Source: a virus (taxonomy: Duplodnaviria; Heunggongvirae; Uroviricota; Caudoviricetes). From it: a stretch of 31,495 nt of DNA. Made by a program: the position numbers and the translations under genes. The stretch lies in IMG/VR virus record IMGVR_UViG_2778261428_000002, one strand, 5' to 3'. Under the pieces are notes generated by a model. The model was not told the DNA's origin and did no database searches. It was given only the letters and a program-made list of their open reading frames with translations. Positions 5,125 to 28,674 of the stretch are shown piece by piece (position 1 is the first letter of the stretch; the number at the start of each line of letters is the position of its first letter).

Positions 5125-5460
5125 ATGAAAGAATTTGGCATCCGTTTGAAGGAAGAACGTATCCGACTTGGACTTGATCAAGACGGCTTTGGACAACTTG
5201 GGGGCGTGAAGAAAAACGCACAAAGCAACTATGAGAATGGGTTGCGCAAGCCGGACAGTGACTATCTTGCTGGCATAGCGGCAGCGGGAGTTGATGTTCT
5301 GTATGTTCTAACAGGCAACCGCACGCCTGTGGTTACGTTGTCCAATAAAGAGAGTGTGTTGGTGGAAAACTATCGTTCTGCTACGCCAGAACACCAGTCC
5401 ACCCTTGACACGGTTAGCGCTGCGCTTGCGCAACCGATGAATTGTCGAAAAGTACAATGA
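5125..5460 (+). CDS. XRE-family helix-turn-helix repressor (prophage C/CI-like, or cassette regulator)
   Basis: 111 aa. N-terminal HTH_XRE pattern (IRLKEERIRLGLDQDGFGQLGGVKKNAQSNYENGLRKPDSDYLAGIAAAGVDVLYVLTG). Divergent from the early operon. Confidence 0.75.
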   Translation: MKEFGIRLKEERIRLGLDQDGFGQLGGVKKNAQSNYENGLRKPDSDYLAGIAAAGVDVLYVLTGNRTPVVTLSNKESVLVENYRSATPEHQSTLDTVSAALAQPMNCRKVQ

Positions 5461-5491
5461 TTTATTAATTTCAGCTTATTAGGGAGTAATT

Positions 5492-6580
5492 ATGGCAAAT
5501 GTCGGCTTTTCTTTTGAGGGGGTGATGATTGAAAGAATTATTGCTCATCGAATCTTCCCAAGGTCTCCCGATAAGCAAATGGTTCCACCTAAGTTAAGTA
5601 ATCAGTTAATAACGTTAGAACAAGATGCTTTGGATGCACTACAGGTTCGTATAACAGAAGCCTTAGGTAATAAATCTCATGGCATTGAAATGTCTATCAC
5701 TGATACCGGTGATGATAGTTTTTTTGCACTGACAACGTCTGTACTACATGTTGAAGGCGAATCATTTATTAACGTATCTAAGCGATTGGCGCATAAGTTA
5801 ACAGAAGCTCAATATAGTGCGGGGAAGGTTTCCGGTGGTGTGTTAGTAATCATTACGGGAAAAATTGGTGAACAAGCCTGCCCATTCTTTGCTGTACTGC
5901 GTGCTGAAATGCAAAACGGATTTCGGACCAATGATACCCCAGAGAAAATAGCGATGGAGTATATTGCTGACTTATTACTTACACCAACTCAGCGGCTTTA
6001 TAAAATAGGAGTGTTGATTGAGTGTGAGTCAGGCCATGAATTGATTGATGGTCGTTGTGATACGCAATATTATCGTTCATTTTTATTTGATCACTTGATG
6101 ACATCGACGGAAACTAAAAATGCTGCGGGGTATTTTTACAGTGTTTTTCTTGGAATGGGGATCGAAAAATCCTCCAAGAAATTGACGCAGGATTTTTTTG
6201 AACATACTCGAAATTTCATTAATCAGGCTCCAGTTGATGAAGAAACTAAGTTTGATTTACACGAGTCATTACGTTCTGAACTGAGAAGTCAGAAAGCAAC
6301 TTTGAGTACCGCTTCGTTTGCTACGGAACATCTTCCTCAAGAATTACAGACGAGCTATCAGTCATTTATGGCTCAAAAAGGTTTTCCGCAGAATGCAGTG
6401 TCTAAAGATACTGATTATATTAAGAAAAAGCTTCGTCGTAGAAGTAAATTAGTGTTTACAAGCGATGTATGGATATCCATACCACCAGATCAAGTAAAAG
6501 AACTGGTACAGATTGAACAAACAGATGATGATGAGTCAACTACACTTAAAGTCAAAGGGCGGTTGAAAAGTCAAGAATGA
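5492..6580 (+). CDS. Hypothetical 362-aa protein, partner of the RSH-domain protein; function unknown
   Basis: AGGGAG RBS 8 nt upstream. AT-rich relative to the phage backbone. Stop overlaps the next start (ATGA). No catalytic motif recognised. A weak, memory-based resemblance to NA37/YejK nucleoid-associated proteins is unverified. Confidence 0.7.
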   Translation: MANVGFSFEGVMIERIIAHRIFPRSPDKQMVPPKLSNQLITLEQDALDALQVRITEALGNKSHGIEMSITDTGDDSFFALTTSVLHVEGESFINVSKRLAHKLTEAQYSAGKVSGGVLVIITGKIGEQACPFFAVLRAEMQNGFRTNDTPEKIAMEYIADLLLTPTQRLYKIGVLIECESGHELIDGRCDTQYYRSFLFDHLMTSTETKNAAGYFYSVFLGMGIEKSSKKLTQDFFEHTRNFINQAPVDEETKFDLHESLRSELRSQKATLSTASFATEHLPQELQTSYQSFMAQKGFPQNAVSKDTDYIKKKLRRRSKLVFTSDVWISIPPDQVKELVQIEQTDDDESTTLKVKGRLKSQE

Positions 6581-7578
6581 TGAGTATAGAGGATTTTAGA
6601 CGTTATCTGGTTGAAAACCATGCTGCTTATGAAGCATGGGGTAAACATATTGCGTCTGAAATCAATGCGGCTTTGATTGAACAACTTGGTGAAGGGGCCG
6701 CCCAGCTCTTCATCAAGGTACCACCCACTCCGAGAGTTAAAGGTATCGAGTCCGCATTAGGGAAGGTTGGTCGTAAAGGTTATAACAACCCTGTTCAGCA
6801 GATGACGGATCTCGTTGGCGTTCGTTTTGTCGTTTTACTTTCTGAAGATATTGAGACAATCTGTAAAATCATTCAGAATAATGAACAATGGATAGCTGTT
6901 GTTTCTAAAGATTATCAGGATGAAATAGAGGTAAACCCTAAACTATTTGATTATCAATCAAAGCATTTTGAAATAAGGCCAAAGATAAATAGCGTTATAT
7001 CGGGAGTTAATATTACAACTGATATGTGCTGTGAAGTACAAATTAGAACATTATTGCAGCATGCGTATGCAGAATTAGTTCATGATAGCGTTTATAAACC
7101 TGTTGGCCCAGTACCGAAAAAAGCGGAGCGCCAAATTGCGCGTAGTATGGCTTTGATGGAAACAACAGATGAATTATTTTGTAATACAATGCGGCTTTTA
7201 TGTGATACTAATAAACCAAGAAATGATTTTTTAAAGGAGTTAAAAGATTTTTATATAAATAAAATTGGGAGACAGTATTTAAATCAGGAAGATAAAATAA
7301 ATTATTGTTTTTTAGATGAGTATAGGTCGTTTATACAAGAAGATCTTTTGACTAATCTAATCGACCTTCTTGATAAGAAAAAATATATATCATATAAAAT
7401 CCAACAAAGGGCTACTGCCAATCTTTTTTTTGCGCAGCCAGTGGTCATTTTTACTTACTGGCTGGCAATAAATGAAGACAGTAATAAATTACAGCAAGAA
7501 TGGCCGTTACCTGGATATTTGAACGAATTGAGAATGATTTTAAGTGATGTTGGTGTAAGTAGCGGTATTGGATATTAA
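6577..7578 (+). CDS. RelA/SpoT-homologue (RSH) nucleotidyltransferase-domain protein, small alarmone synthetase / toxSAS-like
   Basis: 333 aa. Synthetase motifs in order: PRVKGIESALGKVGRKG, MTDLVGVRFVV (DxxGxR), DYQ...FDYQSKHFEI, CCEVQIRTLLQHAYAELVH (ExQxRT...H.aE). C-terminal ~140 aa is Lys-rich and very AT-rich. Stop converges on gene D with a 4-bp overlap. Confidence 0.75.
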   Translation: MMSIEDFRRYLVENHAAYEAWGKHIASEINAALIEQLGEGAAQLFIKVPPTPRVKGIESALGKVGRKGYNNPVQQMTDLVGVRFVVLLSEDIETICKIIQNNEQWIAVVSKDYQDEIEVNPKLFDYQSKHFEIRPKINSVISGVNITTDMCCEVQIRTLLQHAYAELVHDSVYKPVGPVPKKAERQIARSMALMETTDELFCNTMRLLCDTNKPRNDFLKELKDFYINKIGRQYLNQEDKINYCFLDEYRSFIQEDLLTNLIDLLDKKKYISYKIQQRATANLFFAQPVVIFTYWLAINEDSNKLQQEWPLPGYLNELRMILSDVGVSSGIGY

Positions 7579-12923: not shown

Positions 12924-14102
12924 TTACACGGTGGTGGCGATGGATTCAGCCAGATTGACCAGATAGCGGTCAGTGATGCGCTGGCGGAACATCAGGTTTT
13001 CCAGCGGCGGCACCGGGGTGTAGTCGTAGTCGATATACGCTTTACCCGCTTTCAGGATGTCCGGCGTGTTGGCGGCGGGATCGAACCATGCGGAACCATC
13101 GACGATGTAGCCGTTGCCTTTCAGTTCGCGGAATTTGGCGTTCACGCCTTCGATAATGTCGCGGAACAGAGAAGCGTGTTGCGGTTTATCTACCGCCCAG
13201 AAGTGGGCGTCGGCGATGGTATCCGCCAGCACCTGCGCGGTGCGGGTGTAGTTCTCAAAGGCAAACAGCGGATCGGTGCTGCAGGTGCGCGATCCCCAGA
13301 AGCGATAGCCGCCGTTGCAAATCAGCGTGGTGACGTCGTGGCTGTTGAGGTAATCCGAATCGGTGGCGGTGGACTGCAGATCCCAGAATACGCTGCGGGA
13401 AATGCCAGTCACGCCGTTGACGTCAACGTTGGACAGCGTTTTATGCCAGCCGATTTCTTCATCAATTTTTGCACGCAGGCCCACGGCATGGGCGGTGGCG
13501 TACAGCGTGCGTTCGGCAGCAGCCTGCGTATCAAAGCCGACAAAATCCGGCCAGATAATCATCGCCTCCCGTGCGCCGAGCTGATCGCGATACAGCACCA
13601 CCTCTTCTTTGGTCTGCGCGCCGAACGCCGACAGATAGCTGAAGGCGCGAAGCTGCTGTGAAATGCTGACCAGTTCGGTGACGACAGGCAGAGAATCCAG
13701 CCCCGGTACCGCCAGAATGCGCGGTTTTATTTTCAGTTTGGTTTGCGAGTCCAGCAGCGCCTTCATGCCGGTGTATTTCCCGGCTGGCGTGCTGCCGCCG
13801 ATGATATTGGCGGTGGTTTCGGCGGCGGAGTCGCCTTCGGCTACGCGCACGGCGACTACCACCGGCTGCGTCTGGTCGGCGATGGCATCCAGAGAGTGCG
13901 CCAGCGTACCGCTATCACCGGCTTTACCCAGCGCAGATCGCACGTCGGTTAACAGTACCGGGGTATCAAGGGGAAAGGTTTTTTCATCGGCGTCTGATCC
14001 GGTGCAGACGATGCCGATCACGGCGGTGGAGAGGGTACGGATTGGGCGCACGCCTTCATTGATTTCAATAACGCGCGCGCCGTGGTGGTAGTCGGTTGCC
14101 AT
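12924..14102 (-). CDS. FI: Contractile tail sheath protein (gpFI-like)
   Basis: Start moved to MATDYHHGARVIEINEG (GGAGG RBS 8 nt upstream). Strong similarity to P2 FI as I recall it (YTPVPPLENL, GWHKTLSNV). Confidence 0.9.
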   Translation of the reverse strand: MATDYHHGARVIEINEGVRPIRTLSTAVIGIVCTGSDADEKTFPLDTPVLLTDVRSALGKAGDSGTLAHSLDAIADQTQPVVVAVRVAEGDSAAETTANIIGGSTPAGKYTGMKALLDSQTKLKIKPRILAVPGLDSLPVVTELVSISQQLRAFSYLSAFGAQTKEEVVLYRDQLGAREAMIIWPDFVGFDTQAAAERTLYATAHAVGLRAKIDEEIGWHKTLSNVDVNGVTGISRSVFWDLQSTATDSDYLNSHDVTTLICNGGYRFWGSRTCSTDPLFAFENYTRTAQVLADTIADAHFWAVDKPQHASLFRDIIEGVNAKFRELKGNGYIVDGSAWFDPAANTPDILKAGKAYIDYDYTPVPPLENLMFRQRITDRYLVNLAESIATTV

Positions 14103-14173
14103 AGGGCGAGCCTCCATCAGGTCAATAAATGACGATGGTGGCACGATGGCGGGGGGATGTAAGATCGCTTCCA

Positions 14174-14196
14174 CTTGTAACCACAGGCACTACAAG
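14174..14196 (-). promoter_or_regulatory. Late-promoter dyad CTTGTAA-N10-TACAAG upstream of FI
   Basis: Near-perfect 23-bp inverted repeat, centre about 83 nt upstream of the FI start. Same motif occurs three more times. Confidence 0.6.
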
Positions 14197-14208: not shown

Positions 14209-14967
14209 TTAATTCAGGATAATCAGTTCTGATGTAGCGCTGGCTGGCTTTCCGCCTACGGTATAGCGAATCCCTACCGTTGAGAATGTCAGGCCGTGGA
14301 AGATATCGCGCATTTCCGGGATGTCGTTAACCGAGATAATCATCCGGCCCTGCATGGTGCGCGCCAGCTCTGCCATACGCTGGTACTGCTCAAGGCCAAA
14401 CGGTACGCCGTAGCCTTCGGTTTTCCAGTATGGCGGGTCGCAGTAGAACAGGGTATGCGGGCGGTCATAGCGGCGAATACAGTCGGCCCAGTCCAGATTT
14501 TCAATACAGACGCGCGCCAGCCGCAGATGGGCGGCGGATAAATCTTCCTCCATACGCAGCAGGTTCAGGCGTGGCGGTGAGGTGGTGGCGGTACCGAACG
14601 TGCGGCTTTCCACCTTGCCGCCGAACGCCAGCTTTTGCAGATAGTAGAAGCGCGCCGCGCGCTGGATGTCGGTCAGCGTTTCTTCCGGGGTGATCTGGAG
14701 CCAGCGGTACATTTCGCGGCTGACCAGCGACCATTTAAACTGGCGGACAAACTCTTCTAAATGGTGCTGGAGTACCCGGTAGAGGTTGGTAACGTCACCG
14801 TTGATATCATTCAGCACCTCGGCCTGAGCGGGGCGTTTCATAAAGAACAGCGCCGCCGCTCCGCAAAATGGCTCGACGTAACAGCGGTGTTCAGGAAACA
14901 GCGGCAGGATGTGTTTCGCCAGTCGGCGTTTGCCGCCGATCCACGGAATAACGGGTAACGTATTCAT
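14209..14967 (-). CDS. dam: DNA adenine methyltransferase (Dam-like, N6-adenine)
   Basis: 252 aa. SAM-binding FCGAAALFF and catalytic DPPY (YCDPPYWKTEGY). Sits between tail-fibre genes and FI. Confidence 0.85.
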   Translation of the reverse strand: MNTLPVIPWIGGKRRLAKHILPLFPEHRCYVEPFCGAAALFFMKRPAQAEVLNDINGDVTNLYRVLQHHLEEFVRQFKWSLVSREMYRWLQITPEETLTDIQRAARFYYLQKLAFGGKVESRTFGTATTSPPRLNLLRMEEDLSAAHLRLARVCIENLDWADCIRRYDRPHTLFYCDPPYWKTEGYGVPFGLEQYQRMAELARTMQGRMIISVNDIPEMRDIFHGLTFSTVGIRYTVGGKPASATSELIILN

Positions 14968-15431
14968 ATTGTCAATTTTCCAGACCGACTGCTGACCAAC
15001 GCATACAGCAGATTAGGCGACCAGCGCCAGCTATCGCGCAGGTGCAGAAATTCGGCGCAGAACTCGCTGCAAAACAGGCGTTCCTGTTTGCCCTGACTGA
15101 GTAACACAAAACCCATGGCGCCCAGCCAGTCGTAACCTTTATCGTCATGCTGACGAAAAAAGGTTTCCAGTGCCAGCGGATCGGCGTTGATCGGGAGTAA
15201 ATCCCATTTCTCAATCGGCAGCGGCATTCGTTTGCTGCGCACGCCTTTATCCCGTACCGATGATGAGTAACAGATAAACAGGCCATCCGGCTGGCGTTCG
15301 ACCAGTTCGCAGTGAGAGTAAGGGCCGCGCGTGACCTGTCGAGTCAGCCAGTCGGAGAGCCGGGCAAGGCTGAAAAAGCGTTCAGCCCGGCCACGGTAGA
15401 ACGCCGCGTAAACCTGACTCATGGTTGCCAT
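14964..15431 (-). CDS. Hypothetical Cys/His-containing protein co-transcribed with dam; possible permuted papain-like hydrolase
   Basis: 155 aa. Stop overlaps the dam start. YSHCE and FCSEFC motifs (His before Cys). Fold assignment is speculative. Confidence 0.55.
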   Translation of the reverse strand: MATMSQVYAAFYRGRAERFFSLARLSDWLTRQVTRGPYSHCELVERQPDGLFICYSSSVRDKGVRSKRMPLPIEKWDLLPINADPLALETFFRQHDDKGYDWLGAMGFVLLSQGKQERLFCSEFCAEFLHLRDSWRWSPNLLYALVSSRSGKLTI

Positions 15432-16126
15432 CCTGACGAGTAGTCGTAACCCATAACCGCCTGCACCTCCGTCAATGCTTCAATGGCGGCAATATGCTGC
15501 TGGGCAGCGGCGAACAGGCGCATATCGTGCGCCATTGTTTCGGTTTCAAACCGGGCGGCGATTTCGTTGGTCAGTTCAATCAGGTTGTGATTTTTGGTCT
15601 GCCACATTAAGCCTGCCGGTATTTGTTTAGCCACGCCCATTTTGGTGAGCGAGAGCTGCTGGATGCGGCTGTTAGCGTCGCTGTGGAAATGGTGATTATC
15701 GATGATGATGTAGTCGGCGGTGATTCGATCTCGATACTGCTTTATTTCTGCCACCTTTGCCTGTCGGGCTTTTTCGATATCGGGCCGCCAGCGTTTGCCG
15801 TCCCAACGGACAAAGGCGTTATCGGGCTTCAGCAGAGTGACGTTATCCGGCAATGGCCCCAGATGATGAAGCTGTACCTCACTGCCCGCATCGGTATCAA
15901 ACGCGGTTTTACCGCGATGATCTTCTACCGCAAGCCATGTTTCTCCGTTGAATGTCAGGGCAAAGCCGCTCTGGCATTCGGGAGGCTCGATAGTGGTACA
16001 GCATTCCGGTAAGCCGGTGTTGGGGGCGATATAGGCGTCGCTGACGCCGATAAATTCCTGAGTGTCTGCCGCGTAGTTAAAGATGCGCAGGGTTTGCGGT
16101 TCGTCGGAAAATGCGAATGTGCTCAT
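15419..16126 (-). CDS. G: Tail fibre assembly protein (gpG/Tfa-like)
   Basis: 235 aa immediately downstream of the tail fibre gene. N-terminal region typical of Tfa chaperones ([11 protein letters not shown]). Confidence 0.8.
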
Positions 16127-17634
16127 GCCAGCCTCACGATATAGTTGAAAGCGATATTTTTAACGGTGTTTTCGGCGTTCCCGGCGGCATTCACCGTAAT
16201 AGTGTGGCTGTGGGAACCTAAGACGACGGTGTGGTTATGTGCGCCGATAGCCAGCGAATGGGTATGTGCGCCGATAGCAACGGTGTGGGCGTGGTTGCCA
16301 TTGGTACTTGTCACGTCCCTGAAATCTTCATCGCTATTATCAGAACCCACCACTGACGCCATATTCTTCCCTGTTTTTATGCCGTCAGTCGGAATTTGGT
16401 GGTTGTGCGCGCCGGTGGTATTGGTCGATTTTGTCCCGTAGTCAAACGCGCTGGTATTTTTGGTACCCAAATCGGTGGAACTGGCGGTTTTAGTACCTAA
16501 ATCCGTGTTAGTGGCGCTGGCGGTGTGACCATGCGATTTAATGCCATCCTGCTCCTGAGACAGTATCGTGCGTCCGCTGGCGGGTTTCCCCTTGATTGTC
16601 CAGCCGCGCATATCCGGGATTACACCGGAGGGGTAAGCGATTGCCAGCTTAGGGTAGGAGGTTTTATTGAAGGACTGACCGACCATCAGGGCGTAGCCGC
16701 TGGGGATGGCATCGGATGACCACGGTATCGGCGCGCCGACCGGACAGGTTTCCGCCGCCAGCGCTTTGTCTACTGCCGCTTTTACCGCTTTAGGCGTGGC
16801 GGCCAGCGTTTCGCTGGTGCTGTCGATGGCGCTACTAAGCTGGGCAACCCCTTTGCGCGTCGTGGTGGCATCCTGCTCGGTATATTTTCCATTAGCCAGA
16901 TCGTAGGCCGCTTTCACCGCTTTGGGCGTGGCGGCGAGCGTTTCGCTGGTGCTGTTGGTTTCGCTGCTAAGCTGGACAACCCCTTTGCGCGCTGTGGTGG
17001 CATCCTGTTCGGTATATTTTCCATTAGCCAGATCGTAGGCTGCTTTCATCGCTTTGGGCGTGGCGGCCAGTGTTTCGCTGATGCTGTTGGTCGCGCTGCT
17101 TAATTGGGCAAATCCTTTGGCGGTTAAGGTGGCGTCAGGATGGTTACGGGACTGCGCGTGGCGGGATAGGCCTTCATCCACATACTGTCTTGTTGCCAGC
17201 ACCACGGCAGGGTCGATTTTCAGTTCCACGTTTTCCGTATGGGAGACAATCAGCACCATGCGGATAATCTGTGTGCGGCCCGAACCTTCGATTAACTGCG
17301 GCTTGTAGGTTGGCGGGCAGTTGCCGACGGCAATCAGCCGGTCGTGCTCGTCGTACAGGCCAATTTCCCTGATCCACCATCCGCCTACGTCCTCCGGCAA
17401 TACCTGTTCGGCAATAATCTGGTTGGGGTTGTTAGGGTCAATACTGAGCGTATTCAGCGGCGCACGTCGGCGTTCGTTGACTAACCGGGTTTGGCCGGTA
17501 TCCGGCGTTGGCAGGTTACCATTTCCGTCACCAACGGCCATTTGCGTCAGATGAAGAGGCGAACCCTGTGCGGTGGCGGTCGCCAGCGCGGATTCGCCGG
17601 TAGTGGTTAATAGCGTGAAATAGGTAGCGCTCAT
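16123..17634 (-). CDS. H: Tail fibre protein (gpH-like)
   Basis: 503 aa. Conserved N-terminal baseplate-attachment region, three tandem ~44-aa repeats, C-terminal HxH repeats ([24 protein letters not shown]). Confidence 0.85.
16787..17182. repeat. Three tandem ~132-bp direct repeats inside the tail fibre gene
   Basis: Units begin near 16787, 16919 and 17051 and are near-identical. They encode the repeated segment [29 protein letters not shown]. Third unit diverges at its end. Confidence 0.8.
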
Positions 17635-20139: not shown

Positions 20140-20162
20140 CTTGTATTGTGGATTTTTACAAG
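20140..20162 (-). promoter_or_regulatory. Late-promoter dyad CTTGTAT-N10-TACAAG upstream of V
   Basis: 23-bp inverted repeat between the moron stop (20166) and the V start. Spacing to V is shorter than at the other three sites. Confidence 0.55.
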
Positions 20163-20165
20163 CGG

Positions 20166-20621
20166 TTAAATCCAGTGGATTTCGGTAACTTCAGGGTTCG
20201 CACAGCCTGTTTTAAGAGACACAAAAACGGCATATTTATAACCCAATTGTTCTTTAAACGCCTGCAGCTTGAGGAGGTCTTTTTCTCTGCCATTTCTTTG
20301 GTTGTTGGTCGATTTTTTCAGTTCGAACGCAATCAGGTTTTCATCGGTTCCTCGGTGGTGAACGATAATATCCGGGATAACATCACGTTCGCTTGCATTT
20401 CCGTTAGGTTCAACTGCGTAAATTAATCTTTTAACTGCATCCCCATTTCTATTGTATTCACAGTCTACATCCCATTCCGGGAAGTTATTTTCCAGATATC
20501 TACCCAAGCGGTTGGCGATAGCCCGTTCACTATTATCTGTAATCAGCAAATGAGCATCGTTACGCAAAAGTTCATTGATAGCGGCTCGCGTTGATTCTTC
20601 AACAGTATGTTGATTAGGCAT
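20166..20621 (-). CDS. Moron: hypothetical 151-aa protein with possible PD-(D/E)xK nuclease-like motif
   Basis: AT-rich ORF between S and V (P2 orf30 position). AAGGA RBS. Residues VIPDIIVHH...IAFELKK give a D-x19-ExK pattern. Confidence 0.65.
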   Translation of the reverse strand: MPNQHTVEESTRAAINELLRNDAHLLITDNSERAIANRLGRYLENNFPEWDVDCEYNRNGDAVKRLIYAVEPNGNASERDVIPDIIVHHRGTDENLIAFELKKSTNNQRNGREKDLLKLQAFKEQLGYKYAVFVSLKTGCANPEVTEIHWI

Positions 20622-23644: not shown

Positions 23645-23667
23645 CTTGTAACTGAGGGCAGTACAAG
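23645..23667 (-). promoter_or_regulatory. Late-promoter dyad CTTGTAA-N10-TACAAG upstream of X
   Basis: 23-bp inverted repeat, centre about 84 nt upstream of the X start, just downstream of the island's small minus-strand genes. Confidence 0.6.
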
Positions 23668-28651: not shown

Positions 28652-28674
28652 CTTGTAATCATCCGGGTTACAAG
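28652..28674. promoter_or_regulatory. Late-promoter dyad CTTGTAA-N10-TACAAG in the O/P divergent intergenic region
   Basis: Perfect 23-bp inverted repeat, centre about 84 nt from the O start and 72 nt from the P start. A degenerate half-site lies nearer P. Confidence 0.6.

Follow-up and report, generated by a model that had tools for sequence, protein, structure and literature searches.

The virus record IMGVR_UViG_2778261428_000002 (Caudoviricetes, IMG/VR) is a stretch of 31,495 nucleotides, referred to here as the window, that represents a P2-like prophage of Escherichia coli. The subject of this analysis is a pair of adjacent minus-strand genes, one encoding a 155-amino-acid (aa) protein and the other a DNA methylase, that fill the interval between the tail fiber assembly gene G and the tail sheath gene FI. 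In the direction of transcription, the region begins with a P2 H-like tail fiber gene (503 aa, 16123 to 17634, minus strand), whose product matches Phage_tail_fib, Phage_fiber_2, and Collar and whose stop overlaps the start of the next gene. That gene encodes a G-like tail fiber assembly chaperone (235 aa, 15419 to 16126, minus strand) composed of a Caudo_TAP N-terminal part (E = 1.5e-4) and DUF4376 (E = 4.7e-13), with matches to phrog_1807 and phrog_105. It is followed by the 155-aa open reading frame (ORF; 14964 to 15431, minus strand), which encodes a permuted NlpC/P60 (YaeF/YiiX-like) Cys-His-Tyr enzyme and is called the hydrolase below, and by an orphan D12-class N6-adenine DNA methyltransferase of the B3 ORF48/phiE125 gp27/VP882 family (252 aa, 14209 to 14967, minus strand). 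The FI-like tail sheath gene, with Pfam sheath domains, comes last (392 aa, 12924 to 14102, minus strand).

An earlier note made from this DNA sequence alone had placed a Dam methylase and an overlapping upstream 155-aa ORF inside the tail operon, at a position that is variable in P2. Both ORFs were confirmed at the coordinates given in that note, on the minus strand and with a 4-nucleotide (nt) ATGA overlap, and the position is indeed the G/FI interval, which holds fun(Z) in P2 and the hydrolase and methylase in the window. The window was 100% identical to E. coli strain GMF054 over the 2.1 kb compared, and the complete block was present in just 4 of 5,426 complete E. coli genomes. A megablast search of the region against the phage collection returned no match.

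Stop/start overlaps of the ATGA type are found at the H/chaperone, chaperone/hydrolase, and hydrolase/methylase junctions, and no sigma-70-like promoter or intrinsic terminator was predicted within the fiber-chaperone-hydrolase-methylase block. The two genes have a GC content of 56 to 57%, the same as the surrounding structural genes and the rest of the phage. We infer that they are the last two cistrons of the late operon V-W-J-I-H-G. As ATGA-coupled terminal cistrons of this operon, they are best regarded as late lytic rather than lysogenic-conversion genes, and the gene arrangement together with the promoter-like dyads described below leads us to expect their expression late in lytic growth and not in the lysogen. 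An assignment as Z/fun-type lysogenic-conversion cargo was considered and rejected, since the genes are coupled to the late operon, have no predicted promoter or terminator of their own, and resemble their neighbors in GC content. The epigenetic role in the lysogen that had been suggested for the pair is disfavored because both genes end the late tail operon, are translationally coupled to it, and showed no promoter that would serve them separately.

Four TGTA-N11-TACA dyads are present in the window, at 14176 to 14194, 20142 to 20160, 23647 to 23665, and 28654 to 28672. The first of these, TGTAGTGCCTGTGGTTACA on the minus strand, begins 14 nt past the methylase stop codon and is a probable late-activator (Ogr-type) site of a pF-like promoter. 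Its center lies ∼84 nt ahead of the sheath ATG, and the annotated pF activator site of P2 lies ∼83 nt ahead of FI, although the spacing in the window is TGT-N13-ACA versus TGT-N12 at P2 pF. The second, TGTAAAAATCCACAATACA on the minus strand, lies just upstream of gene V and is the probable late promoter site driving V-W-J-I-H-G-hydrolase-methylase. The fourth lies between the divergent capsid-scaffold and portal-side genes. The sheath gene was assigned the ATG start at 14102, as in public assemblies, rather than the GTG at 14174 of the mechanical ORF (12924 to 14174) because the longer ORF would cross the promoter dyad. With the probable late promoter of the sheath operon directly following the methylase, production of both cargo proteins would be confined to the late phase of lytic growth.

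The 155-aa ORF is a real gene, as judged by the more than 4,000 homologous clusters to which it belongs and by the invariance of His40, Glu42, Trp76, Tyr100, and Cys121, observed in 77 diverse family members. Translation probably begins at the second ATG, at 15422, to give a protein of 152 aa, since it is there that the ATGA overlap with the stop of the upstream tail fiber assembly gene is formed. Most homologs start at the Met equivalent to 15422, and the closest cluster representative is 152 aa long. An alternative-frame ORF inside the gene (14972 to 15286, 104 aa) was dismissed as spurious, the conserved frame being that of the 155-aa ORF.

As a single sequence, the 155-aa protein had no match in Pfam (E ≤ 0.1), NCBIfam, PADLOC, or PDB. 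When a family profile was searched against all PDB sequences, the sole significant match was BcPPNE (E = 7e-4), and a second family profile returned YiiX (E = 1.8e-3) and BcPPNE (E = 1.9e-3) as its significant matches, with no others. The predicted papain-like alpha/beta fold superposes on both of these proteins. It also has the signature of circular permutation, in that the catalytic His (residue 40) comes ahead of the Cys (residue 121), which sits at the N terminus of a helix. The catalytic residues of YiiX, according to Xu et al., are His49, Tyr115, and Cys128, plus Glu64 (PMC3142127). The predicted catalytic His40 (codon at 15312 to 15314, minus strand; motif YSHCE) is at the start of strand 40-46 and aligns with His49 in the YSH of YiiX and with the FSH of BcPPNE. 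The predicted oxyanion-hole Tyr100 (codon at 15132 to 15134, minus strand; motif YDW), within a G-K-x-YD pattern, aligns with Tyr115 in the PYDF of YiiX. The predicted nucleophile Cys121 (codon at 15069 to 15071, minus strand; motif FCSEF) is at the N terminus of helix 121-128 and aligns with Cys128 in the YCSE of YiiX and with Cys154 in the ICSEF of BcPPNE. On the basis of the modeled fold and the profile searches, the protein is predicted to be soluble and to belong to the YaeF/YiiX type of circularly permuted NlpC/P60 enzymes, which upholds the suggestion that it is a permuted papain-like Cys/His enzyme. Neither a signal peptide nor a membrane segment was predicted.

This identity conflicts with the name that the family carries in public resources. 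The 155-aa protein matches phrog_1128 (E = 3.6e-53), which is labeled “enoyl-CoA hydratase/carnithine racemase-like,” and the same name is borne by the SuMu, Pm86, and RP12 records, so that a metabolic enzyme of the enoyl-CoA hydratase or carnitine racemase type has to be weighed. A crotonase Pfam match was found in none of the 77 members, and the fold search likewise returned no crotonase. Both the fold and the catalytic residues are those of NlpC/P60 enzymes, and the name goes back to a similarity note in the SuMu record. A metabolic enzyme of this type is effectively refuted, and the PHROGs name and category (“moron, auxiliary metabolic gene”) for phrog_1128 are an annotation error that has spread.

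An exhaustive HMM search (E ≤ 1e-3) placed the hydrolase in a family of 4,133 clusters at 50% identity. Nearly all members are stand-alone proteins of 135 to 185 aa, and no informative domain fusions were found, two longer members having no Pfam match. None of the 77 members tested matched any Pfam family, and the structural neighbors in BFVD are all named “uncharacterized.” At least 586 IMG/VR contigs encode a family member. The identified hosts are Enterobacterales, Pasteurellaceae, Neisseriaceae, Moraxellaceae, and Pseudomonas, to which phages of Ralstonia can be added, and all are diderm Proteobacteria. A 6.6-kb contig from a metagenome-assembled genome labeled “Bacillota bacterium” (L095) carries a homolog 57% identical to the window hydrolase with an enterobacterial-type chaperone upstream, and it is probably misbinned rather than evidence of Gram-positive hosts. 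Four hydrolase copies each were found in Avibacterium paragallinarum NCTC11296 (L153 to L156) and Eikenella halliae (L105, L106, L120, and L137), the result of multiple Mu-like prophages per genome.

The genes flanking family members were counted as distinct proteins, 68 upstream in viral contigs and 75 in genomes, with 51 and 61, respectively, downstream. The gap to the upstream gene was −10 to +5 nt in 61 of 78 genome loci. Chaperones with DUF4376 accounted for 28 of the 68 and 39 of the 75 distinct upstream neighbors, and Caudo_TAP matches accounted for a further 6 and 10. Downstream, D12 methylases made up 19 of the 51 viral and 13 of the 61 genomic distinct neighbors (21 to 37%), a Mom protein was found once and C5 methylases three times, and the rest were sheath proteins, endolysins, and others. 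Some other E. coli prophages end in the chaperone and hydrolase with no methylase. In eight P2-like Pseudomonas-group prophages (L147, L148, L157, L161, L163, L164, L169, and L170), the hydrolase lies away from the fiber genes, between gene X and the holin. In that of Pseudomonas aestuarii (L163, 3328 to 6123), the hydrolase gene and the end of gene X overlap, and next come genes for a holin-like membrane protein, a muramidase endolysin, and an Rz-like protein. The homolog in the jumbo phage RP12 stands alone. According to this survey of upstream and downstream neighbors, it is late structural and lysis genes, and not the methylase, with which the hydrolase has conserved links. A literature search for a permuted NlpC/P60 gene beside tail fiber assembly genes found no prior description.

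Two sets of loci in the survey carry further genes of interest. On one IMG/VR contig (L011, 6462 to 7442), the chaperone and hydrolase are followed by a Com-like zinc finger and then a 240-aa ORF. Of the 51 viral downstream proteins, exactly one gave a match to the Mom family (PF25680, E = 7e-71). The 240-aa ORF, preceded as it is by Com, is likely to be that protein, in which case the hydrolase family would be found upstream of both kinds of Mu-type DNA-modification operon. On two E. coli chromosomes near rluF/yjbD (L088 and L089), an opposite-strand nucleotidyltransferase-domain protein and a slipin (SPFH) protein lie beyond the chaperone and hydrolase, possibly as another defense pair at the prophage edge. 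In L089, the fiber gene is a pseudogene, and the chaperone and hydrolase are intact.

With Cys121 as the nucleophile, His40, and Tyr100 in the oxyanion hole, catalysis by the hydrolase would proceed through an acyl-thioester intermediate, the reaction being either hydrolysis of an acyl amide or ester or acyl transfer. Canonical endolysins that lack signal peptides reach their substrate after holin action. By a similar route, the hydrolase would gain access to a lipid- or lipoprotein-type substrate in the envelope of the Gram-negative host late in infection, once the holin opens the inner membrane, and its action there would aid lysis or egress or keep progeny from being trapped on debris. An envelope target is suggested by the diderm nature of all known hosts, by the expected late expression, and by adjacency to the lysis cassette in some phages. 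Crystals of YiiX contained a fatty acid, and those of BcPPNE had lysine bound in the S1′ site (PMC3142127). A late, envelope-directed acyl-amide or ester hydrolase or transferase is our tentative proposal for this protein, one that we consider possible rather than probable.

The crystallographic lysine also bears on a different substrate. The Cys/His enzyme could work on the tail fiber by processing, acylating, or deacylating the fiber or chaperone, or it could be a minor virion component at the fiber tip. The residues matching the lysine-binding S1′ site of BcPPNE (S39, H40, and D61) are conserved and are compatible with a protein-lysine substrate, and the gene shows tight synteny and translational coupling with tail fiber assembly genes (DUF4376, Caudo_TAP, and unclassified) in Mu-order, P2-like, and siphovirus genomes. 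However, the gene is far from the fiber genes, between gene X and the holin, in the eight Pseudomonas-group prophages and is alone in RP12, and P2, Mu, and many of their relatives assemble similar fibers without it. The main text of the SuMu virion proteomics study, as distinct from its supplementary tables, never names the hydrolase homolog. A function on the fiber is thus unlikely, though worth keeping in view. Less plausible still is an anti-defense isopeptidase that, for example, strips ubiquitin-like modifiers put on phage tail proteins by host conjugation systems. By far its nearest relatives, YiiX and BcPPNE, have hydrophobic S1 pockets that hold a fatty acid, there was no PADLOC match and no evidence of co-occurrence, and the family is far more widely spread than the defense systems it would have to counter. 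We give this possibility little credence.

For the family as a whole, these considerations raise the rather speculative possibility that the ∼150-aa permuted NlpC/P60 proteins are unrecognized, very widespread late enzymes made by phages of Gram-negative hosts. On this view, they would be released when the holin is triggered and would target an acyl or isopeptide bond in the envelope, to be cut or transferred, or else they would act on the fiber or its chaperone. Candidate envelope substrates would be a lipoprotein, lipopolysaccharide, a phospholipid, or the lipoprotein-peptidoglycan link. If true, action on the envelope or on the fiber and chaperone would explain the tie of the gene to fiber-chaperone or holin genes in hundreds of phages. 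Mycobacteriophage LysB is a lipid esterase, of which the hydrolase would be the Gram-negative counterpart if its target is the envelope.

The second gene of the pair encodes, by its sequence, a catalytically intact orphan D12-class N6-adenine DNA methyltransferase. It matches PF02086 (MethyltransfD12) over residues 9 to 225 (E = 2e-28, 100.3 bits versus a cutoff of 22) and PADLOC MTase_II PDLC03253 (E = 3.7e-114). Catalytic motif IV, DPPY (residues 177 to 180; 14428 to 14439, minus strand), is kept in every aligned family member. Motif I reads EPFCGAAALF from residue 34; here, and in the relatives of the protein, Ala takes the place of the last Gly. An N6-adenine methyltransferase of the Dam superfamily with a DPPY motif, as the earlier note had proposed, is therefore present.

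The implied GATC specificity of Dam is a separate matter. E. coli Dam and DpnM are the best solved-structure relatives of the window methylase (E ∼ 1e-13), and its RefSeq name is “DNA adenine methylase,” so it could be a true Dam-type enzyme specific for GATC, like those of P1 or T4, and serve to supplement GATC methylation when replication is rapid. However, its score of 103.6 bits against TIGR00571 (Dam family) is under the cutoff of 114.85, and against the E. coli Dam equivalog NF008152 it reaches 61 versus a cutoff of 441. In Dam, K9 is one of the residues that contact the bases of GATC. R124 of Dam recognizes the G:C pair, with L122 and P134 making contacts to the central pairs (PMC4417163). 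In the window methylase, Dam R124, L122, P134, and K9 align to E, K, S, and P, respectively, and they are replaced across its family, which as a whole has its own conserved target-recognition hairpin, unlike that of Dam. The window contains 131 GATC sites versus 120 expected, so they are neither avoided nor enriched, and GATC methylation would be largely redundant in a Dam+ host. With a score below the NCBI cutoff for Dam and the GATC-contact residues replaced, GATC specificity is unsupported, the methylase is not a Dam equivalog, and its target, judged from the sequence, is probably not GATC; we regard a true Dam-type enzyme as unlikely. Profiling of GATC methylation in the lysogen would be uninformative because these sites are already methylated by host Dam and no expression of the gene is expected during lysogeny.

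The window methylase is 64 to 72% identical to methylases of Escherichia phage PhiKM, Klebsiella phage KP12, Vibrio phage VP882, Pseudomonas phage B3, and Burkholderia phage phiE125, and the family was found in 153 phage records. A literature search for the experimental specificity of the VP882 or phiE125 methylases found none in the papers available. Assignment to the Hia5 family of nonspecific methylases was rejected because the Hia5-type enzyme of SuMu matched the window methylase only at a BLASTP E value of 0.023. An M.EcoGIX-like methylase was dropped as a candidate, the literature having M.EcoGIX as plasmid-borne and single-strand specific. The most likely role of the methylase would be to protect progeny DNA against restriction: phage DNA would be methylated after replication and ahead of packaging, which would let the progeny withstand restriction systems of the next host. 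Its job would resemble that of mom or of the Com-controlled methylases at the equivalent position in Mu-like phages. It is best described as an ordinary orphan phage enzyme in a known cargo slot and should be neither called Dam nor assumed to be GATC specific.

The adjacency of the two genes raises the question of whether they form one anti-restriction or epigenetic module, in which the Cys/His protein serves as activator, regulator, or partner of the methylase or else disables a restriction factor of the host while the methylase protects the DNA. In the window they lie side by side with translational coupling, the pair is kept in the closest relatives (L008 to L010), and in 20 of 51 viral and 16 of 61 genomic distinct loci the first sizeable gene downstream encodes a D12 methylase, a C5 methylase, or Mom. 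There is also precedent for a phage methyltransferase with a substrate set by an auxiliary subunit (PMC10810198). However, most hydrolase loci have no methylase, including the E. coli prophages with the chaperone and hydrolase and the lysis-cassette loci of Pseudomonas. Where a methylase does follow in contigs of Mu-type gene order, the gap usually holds a separate Com-type CxxC...CxxC ORF, which places the methylase in a separately controlled com-mom-type operon. The downstream methylases are of different subfamilies (as the Hia5-like enzyme of SuMu and that of the window illustrate), and close relatives of the window methylase in B3 and PhiKM have no hydrolase neighbor and sit after Com or a small hypothetical gene. 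A functional module is thus improbable in our estimation. The hydrolase is kept beside fiber assembly or lysis genes with or without a methylase, and the methylase occurs without the hydrolase, so the pairing proposed from the sequence of the window is not supported as a functional unit.

The hydrolase and methylase are better read as independent cargo, and it is reasonably probable that they are two separate late-expressed genes inherited with the tail fiber cassette, one an anti-restriction methylase and the other a probable thiol acyl-hydrolase or acyltransferase acting on the envelope. The region past the fiber chaperone is the right genome end in phages with Mu-type gene order and the G/FI junction in those with P2-type order. 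On the IMG/VR contig L008, the order is D-V-W-J-I-H-chaperone-hydrolase-methylase, followed by the contig end, and the last three products are 61%, 67%, and 73% identical, respectively, to those of the window. The fiber-chaperone-hydrolase-methylase block would have come as a unit from myophages of Mu-type gene order, in which it makes up the right end of the genome.

Several points weigh against this account of two independent cargo genes. The share of loci in which a DNA-modification gene follows the hydrolase (21 to 37%) is high; we attribute it, on qualitative rather than statistical grounds, to shared genome architecture and not to function. The late timing is deduced from gene arrangement and promoter-like dyads, and the substrate and location of the hydrolase are likewise deduced, with an envelope target requiring holin-dependent release of a protein that has no signal peptide or membrane segment. 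In the hydrolase family, the alignment column of Glu64, the third triad residue of YiiX and BcPPNE, is Ser or Ala (S57 in the window). The invariant Glu42, two residues past His40, may orient the His or stand in for the third triad residue, and PPPDE1 and LRAT show that this residue can be dispensable (PMC3142127). The Pfam family of YaeF and YiiX, PF05708 (Peptidase_C92), was matched by none of the 77 members (E ≤ 0.05) and not by the window protein, and the hydrolase is for this reason filed in the permuted NlpC/P60 superfamily rather than in that Pfam family. For the methylase, the activity of its relative B3 ORF48 had not been demonstrated (PMC3299994).

We consider the hydrolase the more valuable result of the two. 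The family of more than 4,000 clusters has no Pfam, NCBIfam, or PADLOC model, is “hypothetical” in RefSeq, and is mislabeled in PHROGs, and its gene is carried by many prophages of Enterobacterales, Pasteurellaceae, Neisseriaceae, Moraxella, and Pseudomonas. A misannotated phage family is thereby placed within a known superfamily with an identifiable Cys-His-Tyr site, which yields a testable biochemical hypothesis, as does the near-obligate coupling of the gene to tail fiber chaperone or lysis genes in phages of Proteobacteria.

The window contains other cargo. Between the tail completion gene S and gene V, in the “orf30” slot of P2, a 151-aa protein is encoded (20166 to 20621, minus strand) just upstream of the P_V-like dyad at 20142 to 20160. 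It has no Pfam match and matches PADLOC PD-Lambda-3_A (E = 1.3e-38), and it may be an anti-phage defense gene in a second P2 cargo slot. Beside gene D lies a low-GC island (5125 to 7578, plus strand; 32 to 44% versus ∼57% for the phage) of three co-oriented genes. They encode a 111-aa helix-turn-helix (HTH) protein, a 362-aa NA37-like nucleoid-associated protein (E = 9.5e-15), and a 333-aa RelA/SpoT-domain protein (E = 1.7e-18) that also matches the PADLOC candidate PDC-S33 (E = 1.1e-13). The island looks like a horizontally acquired toxin or defense cassette of the small-alarmone-synthetase type.

Among characterized proteins, the nearest to the hydrolase are YiiX of E. coli (PDB 2if6) and BcPPNE of Bacillus cereus (PDB 3kw0), and to these its sequence similarity is only marginal (profile E ∼ 1e-3). 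YiiX and YaeF are exported or lipoprotein-type proteins. The hydrolase differs from YiiX and BcPPNE in being shorter (∼150 aa) and phage-borne, in having no signal peptide, and in having Ser or Ala instead of Glu64. The same permuted NlpC/P60 superfamily, with its Cys-His acyl-thioester mechanism and lipid or lipoprotein targets, includes LRAT and HRASLS (PLAAT), LnsA of Staphylococcus aureus, and the type VI secretion system (T6SS) effectors Tox-Act1 and TseH. LRAT and the PLAAT enzymes act as acyltransferases and phospholipases; LnsA has only permuted NlpC/P60 enzymes as its top HHpred matches, and N-acylation of lipoproteins depends on it; and Tox-Act1 was named an acyltransferase toxin in a study of lipid-targeting effectors.

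The methylase has E. coli Dam, T4 Dam, and DpnM as relations in class, fold, and catalytic motifs, but their GATC-contact residues are not kept, and it falls short of the TIGR00571 cutoff. Closer are B3 ORF48, phiE125 gp27, and the VP882 methylase, which share 64 to 68% full-length identity with it, the same motifs, and the family-specific recognition hairpin. B3 ORF48 occupies the mom position after Com, whereas the window methylase has no Com and is translationally coupled to the preceding late gene in a P2-type operon. In Mu-like phages, methylases take the place of mom at the same relative position (PMC3299994). Hia5, Hin1523, and Nma1821 of Mu-like prophages resemble the window methylase in role and position, being late, downstream of tail fiber genes, and in place of mom, and in SuMu the Hia5-type enzyme comes after a homolog of the 155-aa protein and Com and differs from the window methylase in subfamily.

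In P2 itself, fun(Z) occupies the same interval as the window pair, between the fiber assembly gene and the pF promoter, and shows no sequence similarity to either the hydrolase or the methylase. It encodes 528 aa on the opposite strand, past the terminator of the V operon, and is annotated as a lysogenic-conversion gene, whereas the window genes run in the same direction as the tail operon. The Burkholderia P2-like phage KS5 carries com and a methylase between its fiber assembly and sheath genes, in the same G/FI interval (PMC3091744), and a late methylase in this slot is thus a known pattern. Taken together, these observations equate the P2 Z/fun slot with the right end of Mu-order phages, as a single cargo position whose contents can be exchanged along with the fiber cassette.

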